Below are positions 1 through 4,788 of a stretch of DNA of 4,788 nt, one piece after another. This DNA is from a virus. Taxonomy: Duplodnaviria > Heunggongvirae > Uroviricota > Caudoviricetes. The notes beneath the pieces were generated by a model, which saw nothing but the letters and a program-made list of their open reading frames with translations, searched no databases and was not told where the DNA came from. Location: positions 1 through 4,788 of IMG/VR virus record IMGVR_UViG_2693429642_000015; one strand, 5' to 3'. Position 1 is the first letter of the stretch. Each line of letters begins with the position of its first letter. Position numbers and translations under genes: made by a program.

Positions 1-128
1 ACCTTCTGACATTCACGGTCAACCAGGCTAACACGTAGAACATGCCCTGCAGGCGTGGTGTACCACTGACCCGGACGAGGACAACGGAAAGTATGATTGG
101 TAAACCGTTTGAAAATATTCCGGATCAT
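1..128 (-). CDS. Partial CDS (5' end only, continues past window start); hypothetical early-operon protein
   Basis: ATG at 128..126 on the minus strand overlaps the TGA stop (127..125) of the upstream Rha-family gene (plus-strand 125-128 = tcat, i.e. ATGA). The frame then stays open for 42 codons to the window edge (MIRNIFKRFTNHTFRCPRPGQWYTTPAGHVLRVSLVDRECQK...). Too short to appear in the supplied ORF track. Product not recognisable from this fragment. Confidence 0.35.
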   Translation of the reverse strand, partial: MIRNIFKRFTNHTFRCPRPGQWYTTPAGHVLRVSLVDRECQK

Positions 129-985
129 TTGCGCCCCCTTACCTCTGAAGGGTTCAGCGACAAATTTATGAGACTGGCCAGTAGCGCCGCGTCGTTGATG
201 CGGTCATACAGACTTACAGCCAGCGGGGATTCGGCTTTTGCCAACATGGGATAAAGCTGCTGCAGCCAGACCTTGTGGATTACCGACAGGTGGGAGTAAA
301 GCACGCTGGCGTTATCTGCGGCATCGCTCAGCGTGGATGGCTTTGAAAGCAGTTTTTCCATCTGGTTAAAGGCATTTATGTATGCCTCTTTGAACCGGGC
401 AGCACGTTTACCAGTGAAGCCCATGGCAAGAAACGCAAAACCGTCGCGGGTGATTTGGTAACAAGGGAGTTTGCGGCCTGATGCGTCGGTGTATTCACTT
501 AACACAAAATTGTGTTCAGTAAATTCAGCGGAACATTCGAGGTTTCTAATTCTATCTAAAACCCGCTCATGCCGTTTAGTAAAGTAATTAGCTACTGCAA
601 GAGATGTGGTGACAACGCGACCATTGATAATCGTGATTTCAGGGTGAGATTGGGTTGGGAGAGTAGTCATGGTGACAGCCCCTATGTTGAATTCAATGAA
701 CTCACCACCAAGGCTTTCCACGACCATATAGGTGGTGAGACGTACAGGGGTGGAAATACCGGTCAACATAGAACCCGGCCCAACCGAAGTTGGCCCTGCA
801 CGCCCCACCATAATTTGGGCGTAACGATGCTCATGACACGAAAAAACCGCATGAGCGCGGTTGTGCTCTATATTGAATTTCGGGTTTCCACGCCCGGCCC
901 CCGCTTTATAAGGTGCCTGAGCAGTGTAACGTCCCGGAATTGCAGAATCAATATGCAAACGGTTATTTGCCGTTAAACTATTCAT
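125..985 (-). CDS. Rha-family phage regulatory protein (Rha-like domain at residues ~106-190); 286 aa as drawn, alternative start at 670 would give 181 aa
   Basis: The 286-aa ORF is in the supplied track. The segment MTTLPTQSHPEITIINGRVVTTSLAVANYFTKRHERVLDRIRNL... matches, from memory, the characteristic N-terminus of Rha-family proteins (Pfam Phage_pRha-like). The ATG at 985..983 overlaps the TGA stop of the upstream CII-like gene (plus-strand 982-985 = tcat). The internal Met at 670..668 is preceded by a G-rich SD-like stretch (AGGGG, about 8 nt upstream) and begins exactly where Rha proteins normally begin. The upstream 105 codons (Gly/Pro/Arg/His-rich) are unrecognisable. Confidence 0.7.
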   Translation of the reverse strand: MNSLTANNRLHIDSAIPGRYTAQAPYKAGAGRGNPKFNIEHNRAHAVFSCHEHRYAQIMVGRAGPTSVGPGSMLTGISTPVRLTTYMVVESLGGEFIEFNIGAVTMTTLPTQSHPEITIINGRVVTTSLAVANYFTKRHERVLDRIRNLECSAEFTEHNFVLSEYTDASGRKLPCYQITRDGFAFLAMGFTGKRAARFKEAYINAFNQMEKLLSKPSTLSDAADNASVLYSHLSVIHKVWLQQLYPMLAKAESPLAVSLYDRINDAALLASLINLSLNPSEVRGRK

Positions 986-1551
986 GCGTTAGTTTCTCCA
1001 CAACCAGAAGCAATCGACGCCACGACGCCCGGAGCTGCACACTCGCGGGCGTTACTCTTTTCTGGAGCGCAGAAGATTTTGTAGACCAGTGCTGCATGCT
1101 CCTGGAGCTTCGAAATTGAAAGATACAGTTCGTCGTTAATTGCTGTTTTCTCATGCGGTTCCACTACCCCATCTTCGATTGCCGAACGAATCTGCTTTGA
1201 GTAACTCCCGATCTGTTCGATGACTTCCAGCAGACGCTGGTTAATATCGGCGTTGTCCACATCCTCGACGTCAGGAAGAGACACAAAGACGCCATTTGCA
1301 GACTGCGCCACAGCGTCAGCAATGAAGTGAGTTCCACCAGCACGTTGTAAAATCATTGCCCATCCCAGCGGGAAAATCTGATCGCCATCGGCACGAAGGC
1401 GATTGAATAAAGCGTTCTCTGTTACATCCAGCCACTCAGCAGCTTCAGCGTAACCCCCCGGCAACGCCGCGATAGTTTTTCTGACAGCTTTCACGTACCA
1501 CTCAGGCTGTTTTTCTACTTTCCAGTGATGCTTACCCACGGTTAGCCTCAT
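982..1551 (-). CDS. CII-like early regulatory protein (phage 186 CII / CP76-type or YdaT-position protein)
   Basis: 189-aa ORF in the supplied track, immediately downstream of the Cro-like gene on the same strand, which is the cII position. The segment ENALFNRLRADGDQIFPLGWAMIL resembles, from memory, the HTH region of phage 186 CII-type regulators (…LRNKLNPDQPH…). The ATG at 1551 has a weak SD; an in-frame GTG four codons downstream has a GAGG SD at 6 nt spacing, so the exact start is uncertain. Being a real CDS is more certain than the family assignment. Confidence 0.6.
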   Translation of the reverse strand: MRLTVGKHHWKVEKQPEWYVKAVRKTIAALPGGYAEAAEWLDVTENALFNRLRADGDQIFPLGWAMILQRAGGTHFIADAVAQSANGVFVSLPDVEDVDNADINQRLLEVIEQIGSYSKQIRSAIEDGVVEPHEKTAINDELYLSISKLQEHAALVYKIFCAPEKSNARECAAPGVVASIASGCGETNA

Positions 1552-1582
1552 CGTTCTGTGGTTAAAAATTGAAGGTGTTCTG

Positions 1583-1783
1583 TTAATCTTTCGGATAGAT
1601 ATCCGGTCTTAAGTCAGATTTCGTAATTGCACCTGACGTGCATTGCTCAAGTTTTTTAGCCAGCACAAAACTGGCTTTTTTATAACCATTGAAAACCAGC
1701 CGTAAGTAGCCTGGTGTTGAGCCAACTTTTCCGGCCAACTCGCCCTGCTGTTCTTTGGTTAAAGAGTCCCAATACGCTTTCAT
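1583..1783 (-). CDS. Cro-like small HTH regulator (YdaS-like), 66 aa
   Basis: Minus-strand ORF; the track gives a start at 1807, but the second Met at 1783 (MKAYWDSLTKEQQGELAGKVGSTPGYLRLVFNGYKKASFVLAKKLEQCTSGAITKSDLRPDIYPKD) is preceded by a strong SD (GGAGG, minus strand 1798..1794, about 10 nt upstream). Small size, HTH-like middle segment and C-terminal LRPDI motif recall Rac YdaS / Cro-like proteins. It is divergent from the CI-type repressor gene, the classic cro position. Confidence 0.7.
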   Translation of the reverse strand: MKAYWDSLTKEQQGELAGKVGSTPGYLRLVFNGYKKASFVLAKKLEQCTSGAITKSDLRPDIYPKD

Positions 1784-1788
1784 ACAAT

Positions 1789-1807
1789 ATGTACCTCCAA
1801 TATACAT
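1789..1807. promoter_or_regulatory. Candidate operator OR-a (ATGTACC-TCCAA-TATACAT), overlapping the Cro-like gene SD/start region
   Basis: 7-5-7 imperfect inverted repeat whose half-sites (ATGTACC / ATGTATA) match those of the perfect palindrome at 1839-1857 and the PL-associated sites at 2593-2631. A weak minus-strand promoter candidate (TTTAAG 1833..1828, 16-nt spacer, TAGTAT 1811..1806) would place this site at the PR-like -10/TSS. Confidence 0.45.
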
Positions 1808-1838
1808 ACTACATGATTGAGATGAACCTTAAAGATAC

Positions 1839-1857
1839 TTGTACCCTATCGGTACAA
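1839..1857. promoter_or_regulatory. Candidate operator OR-b: perfect palindrome TTGTACC-CTATC-GGTACAA
   Basis: Perfect 7-bp inverted repeat with a 5-bp spacer, read directly from the sequence, located in the divergent repressor/cro intergenic region. Same half-site family as the sites at 1789-1807 and 2593-2631. Confidence 0.6.
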
Positions 1858-1873
1858 AGGTTTTAATTTCGTT
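1839..1873 (+). promoter_or_regulatory. Candidate PRM-like promoter for the repressor gene, giving a leaderless mRNA
   Basis: TTGTAC (1839-1844), 17-bp spacer, TTTAAT (1862-1867; 5/6 to TATAAT); the predicted start falls on or next to the A of the repressor ATG at 1874. There is no convincing SD upstream of that ATG (AAAGG is 12 nt away), consistent with leaderless translation as for lambda cI from PRM. Weak -35 match, so tentative. Confidence 0.3.
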
Positions 1874-2548
1874 ATGAAAACAGTCCATGACATCCGGCGG
1901 TCTAACGCCAGAAAACTGAGAGATGGTGTTGGCGGGAATTCTTCCTTTGCCACCATGATTGATCGCGAGCCAACCCAGACCAGCAGGTTTATGGGAGATG
2001 GTGCTACTAAAAATATCGGTGACAGCATGGCACGGCACATCGAAAAATGTTTCGACCTGCCTGTCGGATGGCTTGATCAAGAACACCAGACAACAAACAT
2101 CACAAAAAAACCTGATGTTTCAATTACTAACAAACAAATAACGTTAGTCCCTGTCATATCATGGGTACAGGCCGGAGCATGGAAAGAAGTTGGCTATTCT
2201 GAGGTTGATTTGAGCACAGCAGAAACTTATCCCTGCCCTGTACCCTGTGGCGAAATGACTTATATCTTGCGGGTGATTGGTGATTCAATGATTGATGAGT
2301 ACCGCCCGGGAGACATGATTTTTGTAGATCCTGAAGTCCCTGCCTGCCACGGTGACGACGTTATTGCATTGATGCACGATACAGGCGAAACCACCTTTAA
2401 GCGGTTGATAGAAGATGGAACACAGCGTTACCTCAAAGCATTAAACCCAAACTGGCCTGAACCTTACATTAAGATCAACGGTAATTGCTCTATAATTGGC
2501 ACAGTAATTTTCTCAGGAAAACCAAGAAGATACAAAATAAAGGCCTAA
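1874..2548 (+). CDS. cI: CI-type prophage repressor: N-terminal DNA-binding (HTH-like) domain plus C-terminal S24 (LexA/CI-like) autopeptidase domain
   Basis: 224-aa ORF in the track. The C-terminal region VIGDSMIDEYRPGDMIFVDPEVPACHGDDVIALMHDTGETTFKRLIEDGTQRYLKALNPNWP...GTVIFSG aligns by eye with the lambda CI / LexA catalytic domain (GDSM serine nucleophile, TFKRL lysine). The linker motif VQAGAW (Ala100-Gly101, nt 2171-2176) matches the lambda CI Ala-Gly autocleavage context VQAGMF. Divergent from the Cro-like gene and followed by an intrinsic terminator. Confidence 0.85.
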   Translation: MKTVHDIRRSNARKLRDGVGGNSSFATMIDREPTQTSRFMGDGATKNIGDSMARHIEKCFDLPVGWLDQEHQTTNITKKPDVSITNKQITLVPVISWVQAGAWKEVGYSEVDLSTAETYPCPVPCGEMTYILRVIGDSMIDEYRPGDMIFVDPEVPACHGDDVIALMHDTGETTFKRLIEDGTQRYLKALNPNWPEPYIKINGNCSIIGTVIFSGKPRRYKIKA

Positions 2549-2559
2549 TCAATATTTAT

Positions 2560-2582
2560 AACCTGCTTCGGCAGGTTTTTTT
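2560..2582 (+). terminator. Rho-independent terminator of the repressor gene
   Basis: Stem AACCTGC (2560-2566) / GCAGGTT (2571-2577) with a TTCG tetraloop, running into a T-tract (2576-2582), 12 nt after the repressor stop codon (2546-2548). Confidence 0.7.
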
Positions 2583-2586
2583 ATAC

Positions 2587-2614
2587 TTGACAATGTACCC
2601 TTGAGATACATAAT
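2587..2614 (+). promoter_or_regulatory. PL-like sigma70 promoter (early-left promoter)
   Basis: TTGACA (2587-2592, perfect -35), 16-bp spacer, CATAAT (2609-2614; 5/6 to TATAAT). Predicted TSS about 2621. Interdigitated with operator-like repeats, the arrangement expected for a repressor-controlled early promoter. Confidence 0.6.
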
Positions 2615-2631
2615 GTATCTAAAAGAAACAT
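2593..2631. promoter_or_regulatory. Tandem candidate operators OL-a (ATGTACC-CTTGA-GATACAT, 2593-2611) and OL-b (ATGTATC-TAAAA-GAAACAT, 2613-2631)
   Basis: Two adjacent 7-5-7 inverted repeats with the same half-site family as the OR sites. The junction forms a perfect palindrome GATACAT-A-ATGTATC (2605-2619) spanning the -10 hexamer. OL-a lies in the promoter spacer and OL-b covers the -10/TSS. Confidence 0.5.
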
Positions 2632-3097
2632 GTCACAGGCAAGATTAAACAAAATTTGGTTGTAACACGGCGTATGGCACATGCGTCGTTAGCGGTCTGG
2701 GGACGTTAAAGGGGACAATCCACTCCTTGCTCGGGCAAACAAACCAGGTAGCCGGAATGTGCAAGTCAATGAGGATGCTGATAAGACGCCTAACCAGCGT
2801 GGCGGTTCGGTTTGACACCTGGGAAGAGACCAGGGTGCAACGATGAGGGCATTTATGGAACCGCGACAAAGTGTGGTGCCGTAACTGGCTAAGTGCTCTC
2901 AGCGTTGTGGTGAATGCGCAGGCTGATGCACGAAAGACATTGCAGCTATTGCGGAAAAGAGCTGTTCGGCGGGGCAATTAAACGCCCGTGAGAGTCTGAA
3001 ATAACCGCAAGCCGGAGATCAGCATCGGTCACCACAGCAGCCACTGCTTTGGCGGTACCAGTTTGTACACTTGCTTCCGGCTGGTACCGCTCTTTTT
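2621..3097 (+). ncRNA. Candidate untranslated early-left transcript or long structured leader (about 480 nt, no credible ORF) between the PL-like promoter and a strong terminator
   Basis: From the predicted TSS to the terminator, stops occur in all three plus frames; the longest ATG-initiated plus-strand ORF is 29 aa, and others are 11-25 aa without good SDs. The only track ORF here (minus 2645..2977) has a TTG start, no Met and a low-complexity Arg-rich translation. GC is about 54% by hand count versus about 40% in the adjacent rdgC-like gene. Several local hairpins are visible (e.g. 2817-2823/2831-2838, 2970-2988). Transcript status is inferred, not demonstrated. Confidence 0.3.
3051..3097 (+). 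terminator. Strong rho-independent terminator (tL1-like) upstream of the rdgC-like gene
   Basis: Perfect 10-bp stem GCGGTACCAG (3052-3061) / CTGGTACCGC (3081-3090) enclosing a 19-nt loop, followed directly by TCTTTTT (3091-3097). Confidence 0.65.
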
Positions 3098-3220
3098 ACA
3101 AAACAGAGAAGAGCATCACCGGACGACGGGCTCATAACCCAATCCACCCGGGCGGCTGCCACCGCAGGTGTTCTTCTCTGTTTTGTGGAGAAACTAATAT
3201 CTTGTGCAGAGGAAAATAGA

Positions 3221-4138
3221 ATGAAATTACCAAAATTTCGTAACGCAATTGTGTACCGAGCAACATTACCTAGTATACAGGCTATTGAAGGTCATCTTCT
3301 CGAACTCCCTTATTCTGAAATCGGGGAAACAGAACTTTCACGGTCCTCTTTTGTAGAGAATCCTGTCACTGGTGAACTGGTAACTCCGATATCTGGTGGG
3401 TACGCAATGGTAATCCGTCATGATCAGAAAATAATTCCCCGACATGTCGTCATGAAAGAAGCTAATTCTCGAATCCAAACAATCGAAAATATGTCCGGGA
3501 ATAAATTAAAGCGTGCCGAACGACTGACCATTATTGATAACGTACGAGTAGATCTATGCAAACAGGCATTTGTTAAGTCTACGCTGATTCTTGCATTGTA
3601 CAGCACTGATGAGAAATTATTGGTAATCAACACAACCAATAAAATAATAGCCGGTATGGTATGCGCAATGCTGATTAAGGTTGTCGGTTCAGTGAAAACA
3701 GAAACAATCAACATCAGTGATATCAAGAATGGACTGACTACACGCCTGAATAACTACATCAATGGTGCAGCCAATGCATTTGAAGGATTCACTGTCGGAA
3801 ATTATATTCAGCTATCACGCTACGCAGATCAAAAGGAAATTATTCGCTACTCAGCTGAGCATGAGTCAATTCAAAGCGAACTGGCCGATAGCCTTAGTAG
3901 TAGTTTCACTGCTGATAAAATGGAGTTATCCGGTTGCGGTGTGACCTTCATTCTTACCGAAAATTTCCATTTTTCGCGCATCAATACTCAATCTCAGACA
4001 TTTAATGATGAAGATGATAAAGCATTCCAGTGGCGTCATCAGACTGGCGCTGACCTTTTCCAATTCAGCAAGGTAGTTAATTTGATGTGTGACCTTCTTT
4101 CTTACAAAGAAGATAAAAGCCAAAATCCAACAACTTAA
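3221..4138 (+). CDS. RdgC-family recombination-associated protein (phage-encoded), 305 aa
   Basis: ATG at 3221 preceded by SD GAGGA (3209-3213, 7-nt spacing). The N-terminus MKLPKFRNAIVYRATLP... parallels E. coli RdgC (MLWFKNLMVYRL..., from memory), with further collinear similarity through the first ~170 residues. The track's TTG start at 3071 lies inside the terminator and is rejected. AT-rich coding sequence typical of phage genes. It may correspond to the CPS-53 yfdQ position, but I cannot confirm that. Confidence 0.75.
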   Translation: MKLPKFRNAIVYRATLPSIQAIEGHLLELPYSEIGETELSRSSFVENPVTGELVTPISGGYAMVIRHDQKIIPRHVVMKEANSRIQTIENMSGNKLKRAERLTIIDNVRVDLCKQAFVKSTLILALYSTDEKLLVINTTNKIIAGMVCAMLIKVVGSVKTETINISDIKNGLTTRLNNYINGAANAFEGFTVGNYIQLSRYADQKEIIRYSAEHESIQSELADSLSSSFTADKMELSGCGVTFILTENFHFSRINTQSQTFNDEDDKAFQWRHQTGADLFQFSKVVNLMCDLLSYKEDKSQNPTT

Positions 4139-4143
4139 AAAAA

Positions 4144-4185
4144 TTGCAGCAATCATCCCATGTCAAATGGGCTGGATTGCTGCAA
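4144..4185. repeat. Long interrupted inverted repeat / hairpin in the rdgC-like to yfdR-like intergenic region
   Basis: Perfect 11-bp arms TTGCAGCAATC (4144-4154) / GATTGCTGCAA (4175-4185), plus an inner 5-bp stem CCCAT (4157-4161) / ATGGG (4167-4171) with loop GTCAA. An A7 run (4137-4143) lies immediately 5' on the plus strand, so on the minus strand the hairpin is followed by T7, a terminator-like configuration for minus-strand transcription. Confidence 0.5.
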
Positions 4186-4228
4186 TCAAAATTCAGAGCG
4201 GTGCAGCGCATATAACGTGGAGAACAAA

Positions 4229-4765
4229 ATGTCATTTATTAAAACTTTTTCCGGGAAGCATTTTTATTATGACAAGATAAATAAAGACGACATCGTGATT
4301 AACGATATCGCGGTTTCCCTTTCAAATATCTGCCGCTTTGCCGGTCATCTTTCTCATTTCTACAGCGTCGCCCAACATGCGGTGCTTTGCAGCCAGCTGG
4401 TACCGCAGGAATTTGCTTTTGAAGCATTAATGCATGATGCAACAGAAGCGTATTGCCAGGACATCCCCGCGCCACTGAAACGCCTTCTTCCTGACTATAA
4501 ACGGATGGAAGAAAAAATAGACGCCGTAATCCGTGAGAAATACGGGTTACCTCCTGTTATGAGCACGCCAGTGAAATATGCCGATCTCATTATGCTGGCA
4601 ACCGAACGTCGCGATCTCGGGCTTGATGATGGCTCTTTCTGGCCAGTACTGGAAGGTATCCCGGCAACAGAAATGTTCAAAGTTATTCCACTGGCTCCGA
4701 GCCATGCCTACGGGATGTTTATGGAGCGCTTTAACGAGTTATCGGAGTTACGCACATGCGCATGA
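4229..4765 (+). CDS. yfdR: HD-domain 5'-deoxynucleotidase-like protein (YfdR-like), 178 aa
   Basis: ATG at 4229 with SD GGAG (4219-4222, 6-nt spacing). The track's upstream ATG at 4160 lacks an SD and lies inside the hairpin. The translation carries the HD motif (HLSHFYSVAQH...MHDATEAY). Length and sequence match my recollection of E. coli K-12 CPS-53 YfdR, but this should be verified by search. Confidence 0.75.
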   Translation: MSFIKTFSGKHFYYDKINKDDIVINDIAVSLSNICRFAGHLSHFYSVAQHAVLCSQLVPQEFAFEALMHDATEAYCQDIPAPLKRLLPDYKRMEEKIDAVIREKYGLPPVMSTPVKYADLIMLATERRDLGLDDGSFWPVLEGIPATEMFKVIPLAPSHAYGMFMERFNELSELRTCA

Positions 4766-4788
4766 ATGTTTTCGAAATGGAAGGGTTT
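4756..4788 (+). CDS. Partial CDS (start only); next gene of the yfdR-like operon, possibly yfdS-like
   Basis: ATG at 4756 with SD GGAG (4744-4747, 8-nt spacing), in frame with a second ATG at 4762 that overlaps the yfdR-like TGA stop (ATGA). Open to the window end (MRMNVFEMEGF...). Identity cannot be judged from 11 codons. Confidence 0.35.
   Translation, partial: MRMNVFEMEGF

Follow-up and report, generated by a model that had tools for sequence, protein, structure and literature searches.

In phage lambda, a large irregular hairpin in the N leader lies directly 5' of the first gene transcribed from the early-left promoter PL and is a site of RNase III cleavage. In Gifsy-1, read-through of the small RNA IsrK yields the downstream mRNA, and the C4 antisense RNA is matured by RNase P. 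HK022, an N-less lambdoid phage that must cross terminators, carries the put RNA just 3' of PL. In the dicBF operon of the Qin prophage, which has no internal promoter, dicF arises by termination combined with RNase III and RNase E processing (Faubladier et al. 1990). Here, we compare these systems with a stretch of 4788 nucleotides (nt), positions 1 to 4788 of IMG/VR virus record IMGVR_UViG_2693429642_000015 (the window), which represents the immunity region of a lambdoid prophage without an N gene. An intrinsic terminator at 3051-3097 separates PL from the rdgC-like first gene of the early-left operon; judged by sequence comparison, it is the mapped 3' end of a published small RNA, sRNA-17, to which window positions 2904-3096 correspond.

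The parallel with dicF is one of design. Both are small RNAs with an intrinsic terminator of their own in a repressor-controlled, PL-type prophage operon with promoterless downstream genes, and sRNA-17 indeed lies between such a promoter and such genes. However, dicF is a 53-nt base-pairing RNA that follows open reading frames (ORFs), whereas sRNA-17 has 193 nt, is tRNA-like, lies in the untranslated leader and is presumably released by processing; the two show no sequence kinship. The window also shares with the lambda N leader a large hairpin directly 5' of the first PL gene, but it lacks an N gene, boxA and boxB, and its hairpin comes after a terminator and a small RNA gene. The explanation towards which we lean, with moderate confidence, is a small RNA that is embedded in the operon and has a leaky terminator: the early-left genes would be reached by read-through without a dedicated antiterminator, and the read-through transcript would be processed at the long hairpin. 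The features concerned are the following.

2587-2614, plus strand: PL-type promoter TTGACA-16-CATAAT (11/12), the top promoter match in the window.
2593-2631: two operator-like palindromes, ATGTACCCTTGAGATACAT and ATGTATCTAAAAGAAACAT, overlapping PL; their TGTAC half-sites are common with the OR palindrome at 1839-1857.
2654-2903, plus strand: module A, a conserved structured RNA, with its core at about 2664-2850, an invariant 21-mer at 2745-2765 and the leader AAGUGCUCUCAGC at 2891-2903.
2904-3096, plus strand: sRNA-17 homologue of 193 nt, a cloverleaf-like STnc100 relative with closing stem 2904-2913/3029-3038; ends taken from the PMC7719688 supplements.
3051-3097, plus strand: intrinsic terminator of sRNA-17, with stem 3051-3063/3079-3091, C3092, U-run 3093-3097 (CUUUUU) and mapped 3' end U3096.
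3093-3191, plus strand: long hairpin with a three-way junction, comprising P1 (3098-3117/3167-3186), the U-run 3093-3097 paired with GGAGA at 3187-3191, P2 (3119-3151) and P3 (3152-3165).
3183-3197, plus strand: end of the conserved block, TTGTGGAGAAACTAA, after which comes the mosaic joint with the variable first gene.
3221-4138, plus strand: rdgC-like gene (PF04381, E = 5e-31), the first early-left gene, with GAGG 8 nt 5' of its ATG.
4229-4765, plus strand: YfbR/yfdR-like 5'-deoxynucleotidase gene (PF12917, 24.3 bits, slightly below the cut-off; annotated as yfdR in K-12).

The interval of ~600 nt from PL to the ATG of the rdgC-like gene holds no credible ORF and is occupied over ~570 nt by a block of structured non-coding RNA composed of module A, sRNA-17 and the long hairpin. 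Protein coding over this block was considered and rejected: the hypothetical ORFs annotated in relatives (mEp460_036/037, Ayreon ORFs) are not conserved, and indels among the homologues break the frame. Phages mEp460 and PhiR63_1 match the block (2648-3197) at 98% identity, Ayreon, cdtI and Stx2c phages have related versions, and part of it is present in 2689 of the 5426 complete E. coli genomes.

The original prediction had placed a strong intrinsic terminator at 3051-3097, and the hairpin and U-tract that it claimed are real. A perfect 10-bp inverted repeat (GCGGTACCAG/CTGGTACCGC, 3052-3061/3081-3090) is extended by G-U pairs to a 13-bp stem in the predicted fold (-20.7 kcal/mol), which closes a loop of about 15-19 nt and is followed by CUUUUUACA. 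Of 300 dinucleotide shuffles of the window, 4 yielded a comparable site, defined as a perfect stem of 10 bp or more whose loop does not exceed 20 nt and which is followed by five or more T within 9 nt. The stem is stable, G+C-rich and directly followed by the U-run, as expected of an intrinsic terminator, while the loop is longer than the typical 3-8 nt; the built-in terminator scan missed the site because it permits only loops of 3-8 nt. In relatives from E. coli, Citrobacter, Salmonella and phiV10-like phages, the stems differ but the hairpin and CYUUUUUACA are kept. In vivo, an RNA 3' end falls inside the U-run, at U3096, when the published sRNA-17, defined by rapid amplification of cDNA ends (RACE), is mapped to the window; these RACE data were measured in a near-identical prophage and not on the window sequence. 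The idea of a strong terminator of the early-left operon needs revision: it is a genuine 3'-end-forming element, but it is not free-standing and belongs to the small RNA gene sRNA-17, and the strength ascribed to it is an assumption.

sRNA-17, an RNA of 193 nt, was described from E. coli K1 RS218, where 5'/3' RACE and Northern blotting defined it in a prophage resembling mEp460 (Front Microbiol 2020;11:574833; PMC7719688). The published RNA (E. coli K1 RS218/UTI89) starts with GUUGUGGUGAAUGCGC and ends with GCGGUACCGCUCUUUU, corresponding to window 2904-3096, and its first 16 nt are identical to 2904-2919. The supplementary listing, given as the reverse complement, runs from aaaagagcggtaccagccgg (3052-3096) to gcgcattcaccacaac (2904-2919); window 2890-2928 and the complement of 3048-3086 are the knockout primers. 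Comparison of the published blocks and primers with window 2890-2928 and 3001-3096 gave two differences, both in the 96 nt that were compared directly, so that identity and ends agree.

The other end of the RNA points to processing. G2904 opens a 10-bp closing stem (GUUGUGGUGA/UCACCACAGC, the latter at 3029-3038) that is present in both the minimum free energy (MFE) and the centroid folds of the isolated RNA, and no promoter-like hexamers were seen 5' of 2904. Cleavage by RNase P would produce such a 5' end, at the base of an acceptor-like helix. In the K1 study, the quantitative PCR amplicon begins in module A and extends into sRNA-17, implying that the two are co-transcribed. In that study, sRNA-17 is presented as a free-standing, ArcA-regulated gene, with ArcA binding to module-A DNA that was named the promoter (PMC7719688). 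The primers used there in the electrophoretic mobility shift assay for the "promoter of sRNA-17" map to 2654-2900, which suggests that this promoter DNA is in fact a conserved RNA, module A. The paper does not mention PL, a tRNA-like fold, kinship with STnc100, the long hairpin or consequences for the early-left genes.

Downstream of U3096, the 124 nt between the terminator and the rdgC-like gene offer no good promoter, as had been predicted. A sigma-70 consensus scan found no promoter-like site in 2615-3620. The weak candidate TAATAT at 3195-3200, just beyond the conserved block, has a -35 element of 2/6 as read by eye; the closest rdgC-type relative has TAATAC instead, and the three other types of downstream joint lack the motif. 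An unrecognised promoter within 3098-3220, whether weak, activator-dependent or served by another sigma factor, could in principle drive the early-left genes: TAATAT is there, and the consensus scan is crude, as it missed the promoter that must exist 5' of the phiV10-like tRNA cassette. Yet 3098-3191 is conserved as a helix and not as promoter hexamers, which together with the poor and unconserved TAATAT makes such a promoter very improbable. The rdgC-like and yfdR-like genes therefore lie behind the terminator with no recognisable promoter of their own, and transcription from PL must cross the terminator to reach them.

The same reasoning had led to the expectation of read-through or processive antitermination, with an antitermination mechanism encoded elsewhere or by the upstream RNA itself, and for processive antitermination the analysis found no support. 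No N-like ORF lies between PL and the terminator, and no ORF is conserved in 2615-3220. A search for the boxA 13-mer with at most 3 mismatches returned 3 matches against 3.04 expected, none of them in the leader; the lambda arrangement of an N-like ORF with boxA and boxB in the leader is thus lacking. A boxA-like CGCUCUUU at the foot of the terminator (3087-3094) was rejected, as it is not kept in the SfV or Salmonella versions. Likewise, putL and putR of HK022 (NC_002166) share just chance 9-mers with the window, and the leader bears no likeness to their sequence or two-stem fold of ~70 nt. Whereas HK022 has put copies after both PL and PR, no leader element is repeated 3' of PR in the window, the only sequence common to both operons being the 15-mer 3183-3197/1003-989. 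In the complete relative mEp460, the annotation gives only a late Q-like antiterminator and no N-like gene in the early-left operon.

What could still favour antitermination, by a phage factor from elsewhere or by a put-like leader RNA that makes RNA polymerase pass the terminator of sRNA-17 and later ones, is that the early-left genes stand behind a real terminator without a promoter and that module A is a conserved structured RNA, which lambdoid and phiV10-like phages have 30-70 nt 3' of promoters. Two terminator-like hairpins, moreover, separate module A from the next gene in the phiV10-like phage. However, among the 177 loci sampled, 96 have the same terminator, long hairpin and early-left operon without module A, including that of the functional phage SfV, so that module A is no obligatory antiterminator. 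In P1, module A is directly followed by ban with no terminator to pass. Together with the missing N-like ORF, boxA, put similarity and second copy, this leaves antitermination rather improbable, and the bolder version, in which module A would act like put and modify RNA polymerase in cis, is disfavoured by the loci without module A.

The region directly behind the terminator is better described as an RNA element. P1 of the long hairpin consists of 20 contiguous bp, to which the U-run adds 5 weaker pairs, for a predicted helix of ~25 bp; a nearly continuous helix of at least 20 bp (about two turns) is what an RNase III hairpin calls for. P1 is 98.5% paired over 55 distinct variants from phages of E. 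coli, Shigella, Citrobacter and Salmonella, where one pair is compensatory, with A-U replacing G-C in 10 sequences, and five others differ on one side of the helix. The tip of P2 is formed by GGG-CUCAUAA-CCC at 3128-3140. The long hairpin invariably follows the terminator U-tract, though the terminator stems vary among host groups. The block always ends with GUGGAGAAAC(U/C)AA (GGAGAAACYAA), after which at least four unrelated first genes are found. The linkage of hairpin and terminator, combined with these different first genes, indicates that the hairpin serves the transcript and not a particular gene.

An opposite view would treat the terminator as an efficient insulator that silences the early-left genes against leaky transcription from PL or sRNA-17 in lysogens, with these genes being expressed weakly. 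The stable stem and the mapped RNA 3' end fit this view, as does the retention of a terminator in every variant despite the differing sequences; sRNA-17 was also detected in an uninduced lysogen (PMC7719688). We nevertheless consider it unlikely. The early-left operon of mEp460 is a ~5-kb run of closely packed genes on a single strand, the last of which encode an exonuclease and an excisionase, and it has no other evident promoter. The functional phages SfV, mEp460, cdtI and Ayreon all retain the layout, and the conserved helix that incorporates the U-run exists only in read-through RNA.

The operon-embedded small RNA with a leaky terminator would work as follows. The repressor-controlled PL would transcribe a leader of ~600 nt composed of stable-RNA genes, namely module A, sRNA-17 with its terminator, and the long hairpin. 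A fraction of the polymerases would stop at U3096 and yield sRNA-17, whose 5' end at G2904 would arise by cleavage at the foot of the acceptor-like stem, for which RNase P is a plausible enzyme. Without needing a dedicated antiterminator, the other polymerases would read on into the rdgC-like gene, the yfdR-like gene and the early-left genes beyond them. In the read-through RNA, the U-run and the next 90 nt would fold into the 25-bp helix, a plausible RNase III substrate; a cut there would part the stable RNAs from the mRNA, set the 5' end of the mRNA and provide a second route to the same sRNA-17 3' region. The terminator would then act as an attenuator that also makes a small RNA. The anatomy, its conservation, the published RNA ends and the lack of a promoter, N, nut or put are observed, partial read-through, the RNase P step and the RNase III step are what we infer, and the unusually large loop and the U-run of only five U after a C argue against maximal termination efficiency, as far as can be read from the sequence.

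Several points weigh against this scenario. Cleavage by RNase III and RNase P is deduced from shape only. The stem is stable and the U-tract fair, so that termination could be efficient. The covariation of the long hairpin is thin, with 2 of its 38 pairs changed on both sides, which is no better than in shuffles and which reflects that the element is so conserved. The ArcA-bound "promoter" and the occurrence of sRNA-17 in an uninduced lysogen imply that the RNA may also have a PL-independent source. Finally, the loci were sampled by exact-match patterns, and their counts are not an unbiased census. Note that prophage CPS-53 of K-12 carries yfdP-yfdT without the hairpin or the small RNA, which renders the K-12 RNase III and Term-seq datasets unusable for this element.

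Two further sequences in the long hairpin deserve mention. The tip of P2 (CGGGCUCAUAACCC, 3127-3140) matches the anticodon arm of the E. coli initiator tRNA-fMet. Mimicry of this tRNA was nonetheless rejected, as the 7-nt loop is CUCAUUA, GUCAUAA or UUAAUAA in relatives, so that retention of CAU is not strict. Each of the two divergent operons has one copy of the 15-mer TTGTGGAGAAACTAA, in transcript sense (3183-3197 on the plus strand, 1003-989 on the minus strand). The plus-strand copy forms the 3' foot of the long hairpin, while the minus-strand copy sits at the end of the cII-like gene and supplies GGAG 5' of the next ORF. This 15-mer may be a recombination linker.

Module A precedes sRNA-17 in the leader and measures ~190-250 nt, with further copies in P1 (locus L004, 1500-1690) and a phiV10-like phage (locus L003, 1488-1745). 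Its invariant 21-mer gave at least 120 matches in the viral-contig scan, and in 120 of the 122 scorable copies the neighbour is a tRNA or a tRNA-like element. In P1-like phages, module A stands between trnI and ban and is preceded by a tRNA(CAU); in phiV10-like phages it is followed by a tRNA-Arg, and in lambdoid phages by an element of the sRNA-17/STnc100 type. Over 74 distinct sequences, six helices (30 pairs) are paired in 99% of the cells and 10 pairs are changed on both sides, values not attained in any of 500 shuffles, and pairing in slid controls was 30-48%. No frame is open across all homologues of the core, Rfam returned no match for module A, and a literature search for its invariant 15-mer found none either. 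A search of the whole leader against Rfam at E <= 10 produced just two meaningless matches (hairpin ribozyme and MIR1094). Module A is thus a well-supported structured RNA without an Rfam family that is common to very different phage types. In SfV (locus L005, 1289-1760), orf33 replaces module A between an identical PL, operators included, and the STnc100-like element, and a putative small ORF on the opposite strand, judged by eye, follows orf33. From this exchange, the PL-proximal slot appears to behave like a moron insertion site.

The interior of sRNA-17 varies more than its ends. When the window version is aligned with those of SfV, Salmonella phage 118970_sal3, Ayreon and Klebsiella phage IME207, a 5' box AGCGUUGUGGUGAAUGCG, a 3' box CACCACAAC and the terminator are common to all, while the interiors differ. 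The Rfam model of STnc100 (RF02076) scores 39.5 bits on the SfV version and 37.5 bits on the Salmonella version, both below the gathering threshold of 47, and in SfV the terminal hairpin of the match is the same terminator as that of the window. The window copy itself has no Rfam match to STnc100 at E <= 1 or E <= 10, because its interior differs. Nevertheless, STnc100 and sRNA-17 have the 5' box AGCGUUGUGGUGAAUGCG in common, as well as the closing stem GUUGUGGUG/CACCACAAC round a multi-hairpin interior and a terminal intrinsic terminator, as evident from the alignment, the Rfam structure line, and the MFE and centroid folds. By sequence and predicted fold, sRNA-17 is hence a relative of STnc100, though not a member by the Rfam criterion. 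The two differ in location: canonical STnc100 copies are reported near stx and lysis genes, whereas the relative in the window lies after PL. Another RNA, PasD, has been reported as a STnc100 relative (bioRxiv 10.64898/2026.05.13.724894). PasB was rejected as a synonym of sRNA-17, being a different RNA found in structural-gene operons.

Despite its outline, sRNA-17 is not recognised as a tRNA. ARAGORN found 0 tRNA genes in the window and Rfam gave no match to RF00005. With the tRNA-Arg of phiV10-like phages it has in common only the position, the leader and the acceptor-like stem, and neither tool recognised a cloverleaf with an anticodon arm and T-loop. These phages have the identical upstream sequence including the leader AAGUGCUCUCAGCGUU, after which a genuine tRNA-Arg(UCU) starts with GUGGCAU where sRNA-17 has GUGGUGA. 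In Klebsiella phage IME207, tRNA-Ser and tRNA-Arg lie about 100 nt 3' of the sRNA-17-like element. The tRNA slot and the tRNA-like ends of an element that ARAGORN and the Rfam tRNA model reject, and the mosaic composition, might suggest that the block is a decayed, functionless remnant of a tRNA cluster with a terminator left over. Decay is, however, hard to reconcile with 96-99% identity across many prophages, with the presence of part of the block in so many E. coli genomes and with compensatory changes. In addition, infective phages keep the block, and the K1 study reports from it an RNA that has defined ends and whose deletion gives a phenotype (PMC7719688). We therefore regard a relic as extremely improbable.

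The phiV10-like E. coli O157 typing phage 10 (locus L003, 1380-2030) carries an independent cassette made up of a promoter-like TTGACA, module A, tRNA-Arg(UCU), two terminators and a gene. The first of these terminators (GGCGGUGAUGG...CUAUCACCGCC-CUUUUUACAG) is related to that of the window. From this we surmise that a tRNA cassette of phage origin entered the PL leader of lambdoid phages. The leader and the 5' part of the sRNA-17-like element (window 2890-2937) are ~90% conserved in virulent Klebsiella phages that are otherwise unrelated. Short matches of 40-45 nt were found in many Klebsiella phages, including phages of 160 kb, and in IME207 (locus L007, 2001-2148), the sole detailed case, tRNA genes adjoin. 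A broader and more tentative proposal, to which we give less than even credence, is that the PL leader is a cassette of three structured RNAs from a phage tRNA operon. Module A would then be an undescribed but widespread class of stable phage RNA (P1/P7, phiV10/epsilon15-like and lambdoid phages) that travels with a tRNA or a sRNA-17/STnc100 element and is freed by RNase P-type cleavage there, and the ArcA-bound "promoter" would really be the module A gene.

The published, virulence-associated sRNA-17 can accordingly be re-read as a PL-linked, tRNA-like relative of STnc100. More generally, an N-less branch of lambdoid phages (SfV-, mEp460-, cdtI- and Stx2c-type) opens its early-left operon with stable-RNA genes and a terminator, which raises the question of how N-less lambdoid phages time their recombination and excision genes.

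The remainder of the immunity region, on the other side of PL, contains the repressor gene and the divergent PR operon, with the following features.

1874-2548, plus strand: cI-like S24 repressor gene (Pfam Peptidase_S24).
2560-2577: terminator of the cI gene, preceding PL.
1583-1807, minus strand: Cro-like gene.
982-1551, minus strand: CII/CP76 gene.
840-916, minus strand: IsrK (RF01394, 57.7 bits), in the PR operon, with a terminator at 845-862 and a U-run.
728-815, minus strand: C4 antisense RNA (RF01695, 82.4 bits), in the PR operon.
Minus strand, PR operon: Rha/antirepressor gene.

IsrK and C4 are small RNAs placed in the PR operon between the cII-like and the Rha/ant genes, a design that is the same as that of the PL leader. 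They are, however, other RNAs in another operon than sRNA-17, and the terminator of IsrK is canonical. Within the early-left operon, a hairpin of 12 bp with a 19-nt loop (4143-4185) is situated between the rdgC-like stop and the yfdR-like start. The T-run (TAAAAAAA, 4136-4143) lies on the side of the minus strand, so that the hairpin looks like a terminator of antisense transcription into the early-left operon and not of PL transcripts. On the minus strand, an ORF of 286 amino acids (aa) at 125-985 runs over both C4 and IsrK, and its match to Pfam Phage_ASH (aa 20-116) falls exactly there; Phage_ASH may partly consist of translated RNA genes.

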